IMG/VR virus record: IMGVR_UViG_3300042275_000518
Span: 125,902-189,901 of that record
Strand: one strand, 5' to 3'
DNA from: a virus
Lineage: Duplodnaviria > Caudoviricetes
Length of the DNA stretch: 64,000 bases
Shown: positions 1 through 33,060 of the stretch, piece after piece
Layout: each line of letters begins with the position of its first letter
How positions within the stretch are numbered: position 1 is the first letter of the stretch
The notes under the pieces: model-generated
The model's database searches: none
Told to the model about the DNA's origin: nothing
What the model saw: the letters and a program-made list of their open reading frames with translations, nothing else
Made by a program: the position numbers and the translations under genes

Positions 1-2693
1 TATTGGATTGCGTTACCCATATTTTAATTTTGTTCAGTTAAGCTCGCTAAACTTAACTCGCTTTCGCAGCTCATACTTTCATATGAGATCAGACTATATC
101 TTCATCCTATTATTCTAATAGGAGCTTTCCGTTTCCACTCGCTTGAGTGTACTCTACTCCTCCCAATTTTATATCTTTGAGATTTTCGATAGTCGTTGAA
201 CTTTCTAAAATTTTAATTAATTTATCTATCCTCATGGTTGTTAAATTCTTAATTTCTAGAAAATTATAACCTTTAGATAGTGCCTTCTCTTTTTTTGTTT
301 TATCTACAAGTCGTCTGTGTTTTAAATCATCATCTGTCATATTTCATTTCTTTTTATAGTGTTGTTGTCCGTGCAATTCTAATATTAAATTAAATTTAGG
401 TATATAAAAATCAAAAGGTCTTGATTTCAGATATTCATCGGTATCGATCTTGAAATTAAATATACTTTCTATTTTAATATTATTTTGAAAATATTTTTCT
501 GGCCTAGACATATTTTCATATTTAGAACACTCCGGACATCCTTGAAAATTATATTTATGTTTTCCTGGTAATATTTCAAAATCACCATGTATTGGACACG
601 TTACTATAATTTTTTTATTCATATTAATATACTCTGTTTTAGAATAGTCATATTTATTTTCGAATATATTATTACAAATATTAGTGAATTTATTTTTTTC
701 TAACAGATTTCTTTTAATATTATCTTTTTGTGTGTTTTCCATACCACATTTTTCACAACCACCATGTATAGTTGCAAAAAGATGATTGTTTGGTGTTACT
801 AAAAATTCACCATGTTTTATACAATTTATTCTTACTTTTTTCTTATTATGTTCATAAACTGTATTTTCATATGTAAATCTTTTACTAAATTTTTCTTTAG
901 ACTTGTTTATAAAACTTTCAGTTGTAACTTTAATCGGCATAATATGCACCTCCTATAAATTATTGTTTATAGTACTGAGTTGCATTTCTTAAAATTTTAG
1001 CTTAGCTGCTGATTGTCTTCGTCATTACACGGTCAGAGTTTCCAGCAATTAGAAAAGTGATTATTCCCAGGCAGTTACGCAATAGTTTACCAGGGATTGT
1101 TTCCATTTATGTTCAGTTAAGTTCGCTAATCTTAACCCGCTTTCGCAGCTCATATTTTCATATGAGATCAGACTATATCATCATCTTTTTATAAAGATGT
1201 CTTGCGCTTCCACTCGCCTGAGTGTACTTCCTTTCGGAATAGTCGTTGAACGTTCCTCTTAATTGAGGCTTCGCTGCTGATTGTCTTCGTCATTACACGG
1301 TCAGAGTTTCCAGCAATTCACAAGATTTTACAATATATAATTTCTTATATATGGGACAAAATTTATCCTGTTTCAAATAGTTGATATTCGCCTTTGTTGG
1401 GAATATACTTGTTGAAACTTTTTGATTAATGTGGTTGATAAAGATAACAATAATATTTGCTTCTTTACATGGTTGTACTAATCTTTTCATTCATTATGTT
1501 CAATTAAGCTCGCTAGACTCAACCCGCTTTCGCAGCTCATACTTTCATATGAGATCAGACTATATCTTCATCCAATTTATATATTGGAGCTCCTTGTTTC
1601 CACTCGCTTGAGTGTACTCTACTCACTTCCATCTTTCGATGTGTTTTCGATAGTCGTTGAACTTATATTATTTCATAATATAAGCTGCTGATTGTCCTCG
1701 TCTTTACGTTAGGAGTTTCCAGCAATTAAAGAAGTTTCCTATTGTATATTACTATACAATGAGCCAATCACTTAGCTGTGTGTTTGCTTTTGCTGCCGTT
1801 GTCTTTCATGTTACGAATGTTCGTTAAACATTCTCTATATATTTCTATATAGAACAGACTATATCATCATGTTAAAACTATTTAACATGCCTTGCGCTTC
1901 GAACTCACTTGAGTCCTACTCTACTCAGTTATTCATTCAGATTAAGTTCTGAATTATCTTTTCGATAGTCGTTGAACGTTCCTCTTACTTAGTAGAGGCT
2001 TCGCTGCTGATTGTCTTCACCATTATGTGGTCAGAGTTTCCAGCAATTCACAAGGTTTTCTATTTAATAACAATAATAATTTATTATTAAAAAGGGCCTA
2101 CATTTTTAAGCCGACATTTGTCCAGACATTTCATCTGAAAACATATCATCTCTTGGCATCATCATTGCTGCAGAGTCAACTATCATAATAGTTGGCGGTA
2201 GCATTGTTTTTAATTGTCCAGTTTTATGGTCGATAAATCCCTCTTTGTTTTCAATTGTAAGTTCTTTCTTATACTTCAATTTAAGAGTTTTAATTTGCTT
2301 AACCATTTCTAAGACAGTTTCGGTTGCAATACCTGTTTGTTTTACTGTAACCTTTTCATCATACTCTTCATCCGTTAGGCCTGTTACGGCTTTAATACGT
2401 GCTTCACCATGTGATTGCTCAAAGTCTAATATAAACAAAGAACTTTGTTCATATCTCTTTAAGATATTTCCAGCGATTTGAAGAGCCATTGTTGATTTAC
2501 CTGAACCTGGTTTTCCGATAATTGTGACAACTTTTCCAGCGTCAATACCAAGATTAAGATTGTGTCTGCCACGATTACCGTTTAAGTAATCTAAAATTGG
2601 CAAACCAGTTTTAATCATCATTTGGTCATCGGCATAACCGAATTTAGGATCATCAATGATTTCTTTTAATTCTCCTATAAAATTTTTTCCCAC
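1..2693 (-). CDS. recA: RecA/UvsX-like recombinase, spliced. Exons 2109-2693, 1774-1802, 1365-1491, 1089-1103 and <1-17 (continues beyond the window)
   Basis: Walker A GKPGSGKS, LDFEQ, Walker B IMIVDS. GTG start at 2693 after GGAGG. Removing four introns gives a continuous frame ...SGQMSA|TTAAKANTQL|MKRLVQPCKEANIIVIFINHINQK...YLKQD|ETIPG|GNAIQY, with RecA-type INH and PGG motifs. Confidence 0.9.
18..1088 (-). mobile_element. Group I intron 4 of recA (1071 nt) carrying a homing endonuclease
   Basis: Core motifs flank an ORF. Intron 5' segment ATTGCGTAACT can pair (P10) with 3' exon GGTAACGCAAT; terminal G at 18. Confidence 0.9.
110..940 (-). CDS. Intron-encoded homing endonuclease (CxxH/CxxC zinc-ribbon repeats plus C-terminal PD-(D/E)XK/Vsr-like domain), 276 aa with one TGA=Trp at 344-346
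   Basis: ORFs 344..949 and 110..340 are in the same frame, separated only by TGA AAT. FDFYIP..ILELHGQQHYKKK[W]NMTDDDLK..DKTKKEKA..GYNFLEI completes the nuclease domain. SD GGAGG, ATG at 940. Confidence 0.85.
1104..1364 (-). mobile_element. Group I intron 3 of recA (261 nt, no ORF)
   Basis: P1 GGAU/GUCC, conserved core, terminal G at 1104 followed by the 15-nt exon GAA ACA ATC CCT GGT. Confidence 0.9.
1492..1773 (-). mobile_element. Group I intron 2 of recA (282 nt, no ORF)
   Basis: P1 AGCU/GGCU, same P/Q/R/S core, terminal G at 1492; the junction CT|A forms a Leu codon before ATG AAA AGA. Confidence 0.9.
1803..2108 (-). mobile_element. Group I intron 1 of recA (306 nt, no ORF)
   Basis: 5' exon ends in U (GGCU pairs with intron GGCC). 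Core AATTGCTGGAAAC..AATCAGCAG..TTCAACGACTA..GATATAGTCT, terminal G at 1803, frame restored. Confidence 0.9.
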
Positions 2694-4384: not shown

Positions 4385-5878
4385 ATGAAAATAGTTACAA
4401 CTGATAGTTTTACAAAGAAAATTAAAGAAAAATTTAATACTACATATTCTGTATTGGGAGAGTACAAAGATCAGTATACACCAATAGAGATTAAATGTAA
4501 TAAATGCAATAATATATTTAGTATCACACCAAAATCCTTACTATCTAAAAATAAAGGAACTTGTAGGTATTGCGCTTCTAGAAAAAATACAGATCAGTTT
4601 AAAAAAGAGGTATATGATTTAGTCGAAAATGAGTACACTGTATTAGGAGAATATGAAACAAATAAAACTCCAATACGTATAAGACATAATAAATGTGGTC
4701 ATGAATATATGACTACTCCTATAAATTTCTTAGGTCTAAGCAATAGAAAAGGTCGTAGGTGTCCCAAATGTGCAAATAAAAATCAAACAACAGATGATTT
4801 TAAGAAGCGTGTATATAAAATGGTTGAAAATGAGTACACTGTATTAGGAGAATATGAAAACTCAGATACAAAAATTTTAATGAAACATAACACTTGTGGT
4901 CATGAATATAATGTTAGAGCTGGATTATTTTTATATAATAATCGCAGATGTCCTAAATGTTGTCCAGTTCAATATGGTTCTTCATATAAAGAAAAAAATC
5001 TTCAAAATTTTATTGAAAGCATATATGATGGAGAAATAAAAATGAATGAAAGATTTTACTATGATAGTGAAAACCCAAAAAAATATTATGAATTAGATAT
5101 TTATATTCCTGATATAAAAATAGGAATTGAATTTAATGGTCTAGTATGGCATAGTGATTCTAAAAAAGATAAATATAATATTTTAAATAAGATGAACCAT
5201 TTTAACAATGAGGGTATTAGAGTGATAAATATATTCGAAGATGAATGGGATCAAAAACAGAATATTGTAAAAAATAAAATTCAAAATATTCTAAATGTTT
5301 CTAATCTTGATAGAATATATGCTAGAAATACAGTTATACTAAAAATAAATAACGAACAGAAAAAAGAATTTCTAAATAATTTTCATATTCAAGGTTCTGA
5401 TAATTCAAGTATTAAATATGGGTTATTTTATAAAAATGAGCTAGTCGCTGTGATGACTTTTTCTAGACTGAGGAAAGTGCTAGGAAGTAAACCACAAGAT
5501 AACTATTTTGAATTATCTAGATTTGCAACTTCAAAAAAAGTCGTTGGAGGGTTCAGTAAATTATTAAAAAATATTATAAAAATGCATCCAGAAATTCATA
5601 ATATACGAACATACGCAGATCTTAGATGGAGTTCAAAAGATGTTAATATGTATCAATCTAATGGTTTTGTATTAGATCATATCTCAAAGCCAGGCTATTT
5701 TTATTGCGATAATTTAAACCGATATCACCGTTTTAACTTTAGAAAGAATATATTAGAAGAAAAATTTCCAGAATATTATGATAAAAACCTAACTGAGTTC
5801 CAAATTATGGATAAGACAAATTATTATAGAATTTGGGATTGTGGAAATTTAGTTTACGAAATGAAAATAAAAAGATAA
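4385..5878 (+). CDS. Free-standing homing endonuclease (zinc-ribbon repeats, PD-(D/E)XK domain, Hef-like C-terminal domain)
   Basis: Repeated YTVLGEY..HNKCGHEY..RCPKC units; ELDIYIP..IGIEFNGLVWHS; C-terminal ELSRFAT..YADLRWS..RIWDCGN. Confidence 0.8.
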   Translation: MKIVTTDSFTKKIKEKFNTTYSVLGEYKDQYTPIEIKCNKCNNIFSITPKSLLSKNKGTCRYCASRKNTDQFKKEVYDLVENEYTVLGEYETNKTPIRIRHNKCGHEYMTTPINFLGLSNRKGRRCPKCANKNQTTDDFKKRVYKMVENEYTVLGEYENSDTKILMKHNTCGHEYNVRAGLFLYNNRRCPKCCPVQYGSSYKEKNLQNFIESIYDGEIKMNERFYYDSENPKKYYELDIYIPDIKIGIEFNGLVWHSDSKKDKYNILNKMNHFNNEGIRVINIFEDEWDQKQNIVKNKIQNILNVSNLDRIYARNTVILKINNEQKKEFLNNFHIQGSDNSSIKYGLFYKNELVAVMTFSRLRKVLGSKPQDNYFELSRFATSKKVVGGFSKLLKNIIKMHPEIHNIRTYADLRWSSKDVNMYQSNGFVLDHISKPGYFYCDNLNRYHRFNFRKNILEEKFPEYYDKNLTEFQIMDKTNYYRIWDCGNLVYEMKIKR

Positions 5879-5888
5879 ACCTTTTGGT

Positions 5889-6927
5889 TTATCTTTCTTT
5901 TGTATCTTGTTCCTGCGTATATGCAGTTTTTAAACTACGTGTTATCAGATCTGATTTAATTCCAGAACCTAATAAATATACATTCATCGTGTTAATTGTA
6001 GTTGATCTTGTTAAATCATTTTCTAAACTGTCAAGACTTACATAACCATCTTTTGCAATACTTCTATACATATCCTGCTTAGCAACTTGATTGTCTGCAC
6101 GAGGTCCTAAGAACTCTTTCAAAACAGCATCTGCATTTAATGCGGTCAACATAAAAGTTTCTGGGTCTGATAAAGATGCAACTTTTGATTCACCTTTAAC
6201 AGTACCAGTTTTTAATGTTATATCTTCTGTATCAAACGCATAACGATTTTTCTTAGCCAAGAGTTGCTGTACGCGCTTAATGTGAACATCGTTTTATGTT
6301 TAATCGAATTCGTTATTTCCGATTTGCTTTCGCACTCATATTTTCATATGAGACCAGACTATATCTTCACCCTTTCGGGGTTCCCAGTTTCCATCCACTT
6401 GGATGTACTCTACTTTACTATATTTCAAGCGTTTCGATAGTCGTTGAACGTTCCTCTTAATTGAGGCTTCGCTGCTGATCGCCCAATCTTTCAGATTTTC
6501 AAACCTTCACGATTACCTTTGCAGGTTGCGTTGTGGTTCTGAAAGCTCTAAGGGGTTTCCAGCAATTAAGGGAATTTTAGTTGAGCTAGTATTTCAACCC
6601 AACAGGTACTCTCATTTTAGTCCTTATTCCATCTGGGTCATTATGACGGTACCAAACATATTCTTCTAATGGTATTTTTAGATATTCAGCCGCGCTTTTA
6701 ATCTGAGTCATCTTCATTTCTTCAAATGGTAGTTGGAACATTTGAATTGTATCGTCTAATTCATGACCCATACTATTTGCCCATTTTTCAAATTCATCAT
6801 TTGACATTGTTTTAAACATACCTTGATATCTTTTATAGTTTGCCATTTTATCATTATCCATAAGTTTAACAACTTCAAGAACCATGGTTTCTATTTTTTG
6901 TCTCTTCTGAGGTGTAAGTTTTCCCAT
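5889..6927 (-). CDS. Multisubunit RNA polymerase beta-like C-terminal subunit (probably virion RNAP), spliced: exons 6597-6927 and 5889-6289, 243 aa
   Basis: Splicing gives KMRVPVG-Y-VHIKRVQQLLAKK, resembling the beta C-terminal VG..Y..KL region. The small split-subunit size fits phiKZ/AR9-type RNAPs. Exons sum to 732 nt in frame. Confidence 0.75.
6290..6596 (-). mobile_element. Group I intron in the RNAP subunit gene (307 nt, no ORF)
   Basis: P1 GUUGGGU/GCUCAAC, conserved core, terminal G at 6290; T|AT forms Tyr. Confidence 0.9.
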
Positions 6928-28214: not shown

Positions 28215-30790
28215 TTAACGGATTATTACTAATTTTTTCTTCGCACGAGTTATTGAGGTGTATAAATGTTTATTTGCATCCTTGCCAAAAACATGACTTT
28301 CATCTATAATGACTACTTTGTCCCACTCACTACCTTGTGCTTTATGGGTAGAAATTACATAGCCATATTCTAATCTATTTATTTGCCTATCTTCTAAAGC
28401 ATCTCTTTCATTGAGTATATATTCCATAACCCTCTTACGGAAGTCTTCAATATCTTCATTATACCCTTTTTTGGTAAGCCATTTTTTAAGTTTGTATTCT
28501 CCATTTGCCATAAAATAAGCTTTTTGGTGCATATCATATGACCATTTATCATTTAGAAATATTCCTGTATCATATATAATATCTTCTGTAATCTCCTCAA
28601 GGAAATCAGCTTTGAAAGATACAACGCCGAGATTAATTTTTTCTTCAAGAACTTTATTAGTTTCTATGCTCCCGATTGTACCGTTAACAAGATTATACTT
28701 TTCCTCTTCATCTAGAAACAACTGCCAGTTATTGACTGTAAATATAACTTTATCACCTTGTATAGGAAGCTTATTTGCAATAGTATCAATACCTTTGTAT
28801 TTTCTAATCTCATTATTCCAATACTTACGAGTTGAGTTAGTCCCACATATAACTTGATCTGCTTTTAGTAGAAGATTCTTCATCTGTACTGGTGTTATCA
28901 TATTCCGATTTAATACTAGAACATCACCATAATCACCATAAGGAATATCCCGACCAGTTCTTGCAAGTGTTGCAAGTTTAATAATTGGGTTATCTTCAGC
29001 CTGACGAACTATTTCTTCAAGGATGTAATTTGGTTTTTCTAAATAATCATTAGACCCCTCTATTGGGGGTAATTGCTTGTCATTCAATTAAAGTCGTTAA
29101 TTTTAATTCGTTCTCTTATGAACTGCTGCATATTTCTATACAGATTGGACTATATCTTCTCCTATAGGAGTTTCCCGCTTCCACCCACTTGGGTGTACTC
29201 TACTAAATTACTATTATATTCTTCATAATAATTATTGAGATTGATTTCGTTATCTTTATTTATAGAATATAAATTGTATTTTTCGATAGTCTCTGAACTT
29301 TTTCCAGATATAATATTATTAATTATTTTCTTAACTCTTGTATTATGTTTATATGGTATTCTAATGAGAGTATATTGTGTATTTTTTACATAATTATTCT
29401 TTATATTATCATTTGTATGTGAGTTTATAAATTTTTCCAAATCTGTATGAAATGCAAATTCAAAATGTTGTCGTCCATCGTATTCTATTATTATATTAAG
29501 TTCTGGTATAAAAATATCATATCTAAGCGGCCCACCACCAACCCCGTTTATTCCCGGAGACCATTCTTGATAAAATTCTATATTATTTTCATTTAATATA
29601 TTTCTAATAGTTCTTATGGCATATGAATTTCTTTTTTCACAGTAGGGACATCTTCTTCCACGTAAAAAATGTGTTGGTGCCACTTTATAATGATGACCAC
29701 AAGAATGTCTAACTTCAATTTTCGTTTTATCATTCTTATATTTTTCTAAAAATGTATAGTCATTTGCATTTTCTAGTTTAGACACTTCTTTTAAGAATTC
29801 CTCATTAGTTTTCTTTTTCGTTCCACCACATACTGGACAACCTCTGCCATTTACTAAATAGGAAGGTTCCATTTCAAATTCAAAGCCACAACTATGTTTA
29901 AATCAACATTTATCTTTATAAGATTTAAATCCGGACAAATAAGTATAACCTTCTGGAATTTCATCTAAAAGGTTTTCTTTTGTTAAATTTTTTCTTTTGC
30001 ATTTTGGACATCCACCCTTTTTTCTCAATAAATCTTTTGGTATTGAGAGAAATTCATGCCCACAATTATGTTTTATAAGAATTTTTGTTTTATTATTCTT
30101 ATACTCATCTAAAACTTCGTATTCTTTACCATATATATCATATACTTCTTTTTTAAAACATTCGAGAGTTTTTTGTTTTCCCATAATATCGCCTCCATAA
30201 TAAAATATTGTTAGCGACTGAGTACAGCTTTTTTCTTAATTAATAAACTGGAACTTAGCTGCTGATTGTCTTCGCCATTACGCGGTCAGAGTTTCCAGCA
30301 ATTCAAGAAATTTATTTTATAGACCCAAGCCAATTTCTAAACCAGGGTCACCTACACCTAAAACTGGTATTCCAAAACTTAATAAATCTTTCATTATCTT
30401 TTTATTTACCATTGAGATCTCATCGACTATAATCAGTTTATAACTTGGTATTGAATCATTCTTAACAAATTCAATTTTCTTTTCTACTATAGTCTCACCA
30501 TTTAATTTTGATTTAAATTCTTTTTCGACAGGAGTATAAACTAGTCTATGAATAGTTGTTGCAGGTAGACCTTTTACAAGTAATACACTTGCAGCTTTCC
30601 CTGTATATGCAACAAACGATATTTGATGTTTCTTCAATCCCAGGTGCTTAGGCAACTTAGATATTAGATAACTTTTACCAGTTCCAGCGTAGCCTGACAA
30701 ATAGAAGAAATTTGACTTTCTTTCTTTATTATTATACCATTCTTCTATAAGATTCATGGCATTCTCTTGGTCTTTTGTAAATTGCTCCAT
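28215..30790 (-). CDS. SF1B Dda/RecD-like DNA helicase, spliced: exons 30341-30790 and 28215-29075, 436 aa
   Basis: GYAGTGKS, AYTGKAA, TIHR, VDEISM; splicing gives motif III GDPG|QLPPI; VRQA, THKAQGSEW, YTSITRA. Confidence 0.9.
29076..30340 (-). mobile_element. Group I intron in the helicase gene (1265 nt) carrying a homing endonuclease
   Basis: P1 GACCCUGGU/GCUUGGGUC, P10 AAUUG/CAAUU, conserved core, terminal G at 29076. Confidence 0.9.
29162..30184 (-). CDS. Intron-encoded homing endonuclease (zinc ribbons plus PD-(D/E)XK/Vsr-like domain), 340 aa with TGA=Trp at 29903-29905
   Basis: ORFs 29903..30184 and 29162..29872 are in frame via KDKC[W]FKHSCGFEFEM, matching sister repeats TKILIKHNCGHEF and TKIEVRHSCGHHY; LRYDIFIP..IEYDGRQHF. 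Confidence 0.85.
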
Positions 30791-32253: not shown

Positions 32254-32328
32254 CATTGCTATTCTTTTTAATTTTCAAAGTTTTTTATATGCTGAACAAT
32301 ATTTTATATGACAAAAAGAGGTGATATT

Positions 32329-33060
32329 ATGGTGTATTTAAAGAATAAAATAGATATAGATGATTATTTCATCGGCAAGGTTCTAGAAATAGATAGAACA
32401 ACACGTGAAATATCTGTGCATATTCCACAATTAATGCCCGCTATCGCTTCTGAAGAGTTACAAATGAGCGAAATACAGACAACTACAAACACAAAAATAT
32501 CTGGACTAGAATATAGTAATAGAATATCTATAAGAAACTCATTCTGAACCAGACCATTAGATTTCGAAGAACCACTGCCAAAAGTTGGCAGTAAAGTGAG
32601 AGTATGGATTATGGACGGAAATCCGAGAATGGCTTTCTGGGATAAGTTTAATCCAAATAATAACTATGAAGTTATTGATGAAGAAAAATATGCATCACTA
32701 TTTAAATTAAGAATGAACTTACAAGACATCGATATTTTTGAAGAAGATACACTTGTATTTAATCTTCCTGAAAATAGTAGCATTGCATATAATGCAGAAG
32801 AAAAAACTAAAACAATCAATTTAAAACAGTCAGAAAACTATGTGGTAACAGAAATTACACCATCAGCGCCTTTTGAAGGTTTATTATGGTATCATCCAAC
32901 ATCTAAAATATTGAGACTGTATAAAAATGGAAGTTTTAGAAAAATGCTAACTGAAGATGAGGTCAATTCCCTTATTTCAGATTTAAACGATACAATAAGT
33001 AGTTTAAACAGTACAATATCATCACTTGATGCAAGGGTAACTGCCCTAGAAACACCATAG
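32329..33060 (+). CDS. Baseplate gp5/gpV-type OB-fold protein, 243 aa with TGA=Trp at 32545-32547
   Basis: IGKVLEID..ISVHIPQL..NSF[W]TRP..LPKVGSKVRVWIMDGNP fuses ORFs 32308 and 32596 in frame. Confidence 0.7.

Follow-up and report, generated by a model that had tools for sequence, protein, structure and literature searches.

Group I introns are a standard feature of phage genes for DNA metabolism. We analyzed a 64,000-nucleotide (nt) window (G000:C1:125902-189901) of the 189.9-kb IMG/VR virus record IMGVR_UViG_3300042275_000518 (estimated completeness 74%), in which the gene for a RecA/UvsX-type recombinase, here called recA, is predicted to be interrupted by four group I introns. The recA L2 region is a known target of introns and inteins, such as the M. 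leprae intein (PMC3239194). In Bacillus phage 0305phi8-36, the recA gene contains a group I intron in the region coding for the L2 loop, and this intron encodes the Vsr-like endonuclease I-Bth0305I (PMC3239194). The recA gene described here is likewise cut in its L2-loop region by a group I intron with a putative Vsr-like endonuclease gene. However, 0305phi8-36 has a single intron, with I-Bth0305I located in P5 and bearing NUMOD N-terminal motifs, whereas the present gene has four introns, and its endonuclease gene is located in the P6 loop and encodes DUF723/treble-clef repeats.

Several introns within one phage gene have been described in Bastillevirinae, in which the DNA polymerase and terminase genes each carry two or three IA-like introns, with splicing shown experimentally and a maximum of three introns per gene (PMC11878797). 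In the same set of phages, the reductase gene of phiNIT1 has a small exon between two introns, and exon skipping reaches ~47% of SIOphi transcripts (PMC11878797). The introns of the phage investigated here are putatively IA-like as well, and intron endonucleases matching phrog_559 (Vsr-type) occur in both cases, but the phage family and the affected genes differ. Staphylococcus phage Twort carries three group I introns in one gene, orf142, and exon skipping occurs there (Landthaler & Shub 1999, as cited in PMC11878797). As far as orf142 is described in the citing paper, it shares with the recA gene a stack of several phage-type group I introns in a short stretch of a protein-coding gene, with small internal exons, and skipping between neighbouring ribozymes is an expected side reaction in both. 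It differs in having three introns in a tail tube protein gene, whereas here four introns lie in a recombinase gene and their splicing is a prediction.

A non-exhaustive phrase search of the literature returned genes with at least four group I introns among organellar and fungal genes and among cyanobacterial rRNA genes, and not among phage protein-coding genes. Within that search, the recA gene is the densest group I intron stack that we could document in a phage protein-coding gene. An earlier note on this DNA had called the intron density exceptional, and with four introns the gene does stand one above the published phage maximum of three; the claim has to be tempered, since one relative (L035, described below) already has three introns and a 23-nt exon. 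The locus constitutes a compact natural system in which to ask how adjacent paralogous ribozymes fold and splice without interference. It also bears on the minimum length of an exon that still serves P10 of one intron and P1 of the next, on the spread of introns lacking an open reading frame (ORF) beside an endonuclease-bearing one, and on the accumulation of introns at a hot-spot.

Exon-intron structure of the recA gene

The recA gene is encoded on the minus strand. Exon 1 (2109..2693; 585 nt, 195 codons) starts with a GTG codon at 2693, which is preceded by a GGAGG motif and agrees with the N-termini of homologs; it encodes the Walker A motif GKPGSGKST and the Walker B motif IMIVDS and ends in UCGGCU. 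The introns were scored with the Rfam covariance model for group I introns, RF00028 (gathering score 50 bits). Intron 1 (1803..2108; 306 nt, 93.4 bits, E value 1e-22) is ORF-less and has an in-frame TAA as its first codon. It is followed by exon 2 (1774..1802; 29 nt), which encodes TTAAKANTQ plus two nucleotides of a Leu codon and is colinear with ATxxAKANTQL in intronless homologs. Intron 2 (1492..1773; 282 nt, 81.2 bits, E value 5e-19), also ORF-less, is inserted in phase 2, and the subsequent exon 3 (1365..1491; 127 nt), encoding MKRLVQPCKEANIIVIFINHINQKV...NYLKQD, again aligned colinearly. The third ORF-less intron (1104..1364; 261 nt) gave the highest score of 111.4 bits (E value 4e-28). 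Exon 4 (1089..1103) consists of just 15 nt, GAAACAAUCCCUGGU, which encode the ETIPG of the L2 loop and match DET(L/I)PG|GNA in all intronless homologs. In intron 4 (18..1088; 1071 nt), an endonuclease ORF located in the P6 loop interrupts the core. Each of the four introns ends in G.

The first 17 nt of exon 5 (1..17), encoding GNAIQY..., are located in the window and another 445 nt outside it, giving a total of 462 nt (L015:13457-13918) that run continuously to a TAA stop at G000:125457-125459. Since exon 5 is uninterrupted, the gene has exactly four introns, and the suggestion in the earlier note that more introns may lie beyond the window was not borne out. All exon and intron boundaries proposed in that note hold on the minus strand. 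The four introns make up 61% of the gene and fall within the coding sequence for the L1-to-L2 DNA-binding region.

Joining of the five exons yields a predicted 405-amino acid (aa) protein, which aligned with the recombinases of AR9, LPJP1 and SA1 without a gap at any junction and was also colinear with 15 full-length intronless metagenomic clusters (395-424 aa, 46-60% identity over exon 1). At the junctions it reads SGQMSA|TTAAKANTQL|MKRLV and NYLKQD|ETIPG|GNAIQY, the homolog counterparts being GQMSATAMAKANTQLFKRLV and NYLKQDETLPGGNAPMY, so that, as had been proposed, the internal exons of 29, 127 and 15 nt rebuild the L1/L2 region. The product contains a RecA-fold ATPase with Walker A, Walker B and L2 loop motifs, and family profiles matched it: phrog_97 (UvsX-like recombinase) matched exon 1 (E value 1.2e-22) and exon 5 (E value 5.4e-6). 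Exon 1 by itself scored under the Pfam RecA cut-off (16.6 vs 27 bits), and PF00154 was precomputed for 14 of 15 full-length homologs.

A tblastn search with exon 1 as the query matched only AR9/PBS1-type Bacillus phages, Listeria phage LPJP1 and Staphylococcus jumbo phages (34-44% identity). Their homologs are annotated as UvsX-like recombinases, are intronless and 421-433 aa in length, and precede an RNA polymerase beta gene; among named homologs, the UvsX-like recombinase AR9 g086 is the closest. An RNA polymerase beta gene is located downstream of recA here too, matching the AR9-like gene order. The source is an uncultured AR9/PBS1-like jumbo phage, and its record has a GC content of 31%. 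We also considered a second, intronless recA elsewhere in the genome; this was rejected, as no second recA-like gene was found in the record (74% complete), within which recA is single copy.

The conserved blocks AAUUGCUGGAAAC, GACAAUCAGCAGC, GUUCAACGACUA and GAUAUAGUCU were found in all four introns. When a profile built from the four cores was searched with nhmmer, intron 4 was matched on both sides of its ORF (5' part, E value 1.8e-22; 3' part, E value 1.2e-52). Pairwise identity among the four cores is 61-80%, depending on the alignment. The Rfam alignments contain an insert of 31-67 nt between P7 and P3', the position of the P7.1/P7.2 helices of subgroup IA, and the cores resemble introns from many phage records, those of Staphylococcus and Escherichia among them. 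We predict that the introns are of the ordinary, IA-like phage type of group I.

The splice sites possess the anatomy that the earlier note had ascribed to them: each 5' exon has a U as its last base, a P1 helix is present, and every intron closes with the terminal G (omega-G). In all four P1 helices, this U makes a U·G pair with the internal guide. The P1 helices are GGCU:GGCC for intron 1, AGCU:GGCU for intron 2, GGAU:GUCC for intron 3 and CCCUGGU:GCCUGGG for intron 4, the last with 6 of 7 pairs and the U·G pair at the splice site. P1 of intron 3 is lengthened by AAA:UUU, and this intron has a candidate P10, GAAA:UUUU. Intron 4 can form P10 with the start of exon 5 through GGUAACGCAAU:AUUGCGUAACU (10/11 pairs, -11.8 kcal/mol).

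On the 15-nt exon 4, P10 of intron 3 could involve the GAAA at nt 1-4, and P1 of intron 4 is formed by the CCCUGGU at nt 9-15, without overlap. Since separate nucleotides are used for the two helices, the sequence imposes no splicing order, and a forced order through P10/P1 overlap was rejected. The proposal that this exon partners both ribozymes thus stands, and the further step, that ordered splicing or exon skipping is implied, does not, either being possible. Crowding of two ribozymes 15 nt apart might still be a source of splicing order.

Taken together, the intron cores, the splice-site anatomy and the colinear product are far beyond chance, and the split of recA/UvsX by four group I introns, as first proposed in the earlier note, is supported by the RF00028 matches, the splice sites and the gap-free alignment to intronless homologs. 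Judging from these sequence features, it is highly probable that four mobile phage-type group I introns have invaded the sole recA/UvsX gene within 171 nt, and that their excision would restore the 405-aa frame.

Insertion sites in related phages and the intron-4 endonuclease

Relatives of the gene were obtained by a metagenome scan and protein searches, after which the DNA of their loci was inspected; searches of viral contigs for relatives with a single protein and with an alignment yielded nothing useful. Across the clade, six closely spaced sites (1, 1', 2, 3, 4' and 4) lie within ~170 nt of the L1-L2 coding region, and the relatives carry zero, one or three introns. Four of the six sites are filled in the phage under study, and its site 3 is occupied in none of the relatives examined. 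At site 1, an intron is present in L026 (77% identity to exon 1), with identical splice site and intron start, and in L031 (63%). Site 2 is occupied by an ORF-less intron in L020 (67%) and by an ORF-containing intron in L023 (58%), and site 4 is filled in L019 (63%), in which the intron carries an intact gene for a 279-aa DUF723 endonuclease. L021, L024 and L025 (57-61%) have their intron at site 4', 3 nt upstream of site 4 and between the Pro and Gly codons, and L033 and L034 (~60%) each contain a single intron, which is located at site 4 or 4' and bears an insert of ORF size. Three introns were found in L035 (54%), at sites 1', 2 and 4', of which site 1' is 6 nt downstream of site 1. Four relatives (L032, L037, L038 and L039; 42-58%) are intronless. 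The L035 locus (L035:766-1679; JAEIGA010035117.1) includes a 23-nt internal exon, ATGGCAAAAGCAAATACTCAGCT.

The single-intron relatives L019, L020, L021, L024 and L025, together with L035, resemble the present locus in that introns of one family interrupt this gene at identical or adjacent sites. Unlike this phage, neither L035 nor any single-intron allele has site 3 filled, and none has four introns.

The site-2 introns of L020, L023 and L035 are orthologous to intron 2, and the site-4 intron of L019 is orthologous to intron 4. In a tree of the cores, intron 2 grouped with the site-2 intron of L020 (support 0.96) and intron 4 with the site-4 intron of L019 (0.52, weak); intron 3 was sister to these two groups, and intron 1 was more distant. 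We rejected recent tandem duplication as the origin of the four introns on the grounds that introns 2 and 4 group with same-site introns of other phages, the support for intron 4 being weak (0.52). The tree appears to fit separate site-specific lineages better than recent tandem duplication. Because orthologous introns sit singly at sites 1, 2 and 4 in related phages, and still other phages have introns at sites 1' and 4', the stack was probably built by separate homing events at a hot-spot.

Comparison of the site-4 orthologs of this phage and L019 revealed that one P1 pair changes from C-G to A-U (compensatory) and that the U-U mismatch found here is a G-C pair in L019. In the L019 intron, a different stretch is complementary to its own 3' exon as P10, so that the 5' region of each ortholog is complementary to its own 3' exon. 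The guide of the site-4 introns changes along with the exon, as is expected of a working guide sequence, a comparison made between predicted pairings.

In a further relative, L028 (L028:728-1020; JGI 3300077319 contig, 1042 nt; 86% identity over exon 1), exons 1 and 2 are fused and a single 292-nt mosaic intron is present. The 5' end of this intron is intron-2-like, its middle is 94% identical to intron 3 and its 3' end is intron-4-like; it begins at the 5' splice site of site 2, finishes at the 3' splice site of site 4 and is directly followed by exon 5, with exons 3 and 4 missing and the frame off by 142 nt. L028 represents either a recombination deletion between paralogous introns or a collapse of the ~1-kb contig across them. 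Under both readings, its phage population carries introns at several of the six sites. We read the L1-L2 region of recA as an extreme case of occupancy at a homing hot-spot rather than as evidence of a new mechanism.

The homing-endonuclease gene of intron 4 (110..940, minus strand) encodes N-terminal DUF723/treble-clef repeats and a putative C-terminal Vsr-like domain. It matched the profiles PF05265 (E value 9e-5) and phrog_559 (E value 5.5e-27), and PF04480 below the cut-off (E value 0.015). The family phrog_559 is listed as carrying a VSR domain (PMC11878797). A phmmer search of PDB sequences with the intact L019 homolog gave no match to the I-Bth0305I structure, 3R3P. The endonuclease frame is not intact under translation table 11, as it contains a single in-frame TGA (346-344, minus strand), which aligns with a Trp conserved in the intact L019 and L021 homologs. 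No transfer RNA (tRNA) with a UCA anticodon was found in the phage tRNA cluster. The ORF-less introns 1-3, each no more than ~1 kb from the intron-4 site, may spread by co-conversion whenever an intron-4 endonuclease cuts an intronless allele.

Predicted splicing and alternative readings

We propose that the recA RNA would self-splice, most simply co-transcriptionally and in the 5' to 3' direction. In-frame stop codons occur at the first codon of intron 1 and after 7, 23 and 28 codons of introns 2, 3 and 4, respectively. Because intron 1 opens with an in-frame TAA, ribosomes would reach the downstream ribozymes only after removal of that intron; this would shield all three of them and may protect their folding. 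As in Twort orf142 and SIOphi, some skipping of exons is likely. It is plausible because the cores are 61-80% identical and the intron 2 guide, GGCU, could on a reading of the sequences pair with the end of exon 1 as well. Skipping of exon 4 alone, which the earlier note had correctly given as in frame, and of exons 2 and 3 (156 nt) or exons 2, 3 and 4 (171 nt) would maintain the frame.

Several observations weigh against invasion by four introns that are all excised. The P1 helices of introns 1-3 are just 4 bp long, translation could extend into the cores of introns 3 and 4, in which the first stop comes after 23 and 28 codons, respectively, and the four similar cores could mispair. With the RF00028 model, only the P8-P9 part of intron 4 was matched (34 bits, E value 2.5e-6), and this intron was not scored as a whole; its score is low because the core is split by the ORF, and the check proposed in the earlier note otherwise returned introns 1-3 at 81-111 bits and, with the profile of the four cores, both sides of intron 4. 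The in-frame TGA means that the intron-4 endonuclease may be inactive. A full-length, near-identical protein of the kind that a spliced transcript might have yielded was not in the protein database. What the database does hold are ORFs of 152-262 aa from this recombinase gene family, the short ones ending exactly at the insertion sites, and gene callers chop such intron-bearing recombinase genes into fragments. The existence of another contig with the same four-intron locus and one mismatch (L027; JGI 3300042279, 4835 nt) speaks for the arrangement, although L027 may share its source sample with the IMG/VR record.

The stack might instead be regulatory, with sequential or alternative splicing timing or tuning the recombinase output through gating by GTP level or translation, or through in-frame skipped isoforms that lack ETIPG or all 57 internal codons. 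The three frame-preserving skips and the stop codon that opens intron 1 would suit this reading, as would the exon skipping measured in phage genes (PMC11878797) and the possible pairing of the intron 2 guide GGCU with the end of exon 1. Since most relatives have zero or one intron, however, the stack is not required for function; its occupancy pattern resembles selfish homing, and skipped products would miss the essential L2 loop. We consider a regulatory stack unlikely. In one specific form, the stack would be a splicing-controlled gate, at which ribosomes stall at the intron 1 stop and the downstream ribozymes clear in turn, the skipped in-frame products being inactive or dominant-negative. 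If so, recombination would not begin until infection had reached a set stage or energy state, but we regard such a gate as quite unlikely.

It is very unlikely that recA is a decaying gene, in which the introns are real, at least one of them no longer splices, and an effectively dead recombinase is kept as a carrier for selfish elements. Three introns without an endonuclease, a fourth with an in-frame TGA in its endonuclease gene and a frameshifted L028 allele missing exons 3 and 4 could all be products of such decay. Nevertheless, the five exons are intact, in frame and conserved in their functional motifs, the catalytic-core blocks, P1 helices and terminal Gs are all retained, and the gene is the sole recA copy in the 74%-complete record.

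An assembly chimera, in which variants with one or two introns were threaded into a single path that no phage carries, is extremely improbable. Relatives do differ in the sites they have occupied, and the short contig L028, whose intron has the 5' end of a site-2 and the 3' end of a site-4 intron, may have arisen by collapse across paralogous introns. However, no read is as short as the 29-nt and 15-nt exons, so that introns 1 and 2 and introns 3 and 4 must be physically linked; the introns are only 61-80% identical, each exon is present once and in frame, and L027 carries the same locus. The link across the 127-nt exon 3 is the one that rests on assembly.

Other introns and neighbouring features of the phage record

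The phage record is rich in introns, with seven RF00028 matches above the cut-off and five partial ones in a search of the whole genome. Directly downstream of recA, the RNA polymerase beta-like gene is itself interrupted by a group I intron (G000:C1:123390-123726, L015:11390-11726, minus strand; RF00028, 80.2 bits). Further RF00028 matches in the record are located at G000 32280-32534, 71664-71977, 120520-120699 and 72772-72804. Within the window, an ORF-less group I intron (6294-6629, minus strand; RF00028, 77.5 bits) lies between the ORFs at 6927-6586 and 6260-5889. The convergent neighbouring gene, at 4385-5878 on the plus strand, encodes a free-standing protein of 497 aa that is endonuclease-like, has treble-clef repeats and matched the Mom family weakly.

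A group I intron of ~1.2 kb with an endonuclease ORF (window ~29088-30316, minus strand) divides a gene for a PIF1/RecD-like superfamily 1 (SF1) helicase into an N-terminal part at 30790-30317 and a C-terminal part at 29087-28215. The DUF723/Vsr-like endonuclease gene of this intron likewise contains exactly one in-frame TGA, at ~29903-29905 (minus strand), and among ORFs of at least 150 codons, TGA is the stop codon in 18 of 142.

Elsewhere in the record, a gene for transfer-messenger RNA (L013:16376-16715, G000 96376-96715; 156.7 bits) encodes the tag ANTQELAFA. A c-di-GMP-I riboswitch aptamer (L013:7276-7350, G000 87276-87350; 55.8 bits) adjoins a cluster of ~23-28 tRNA genes.

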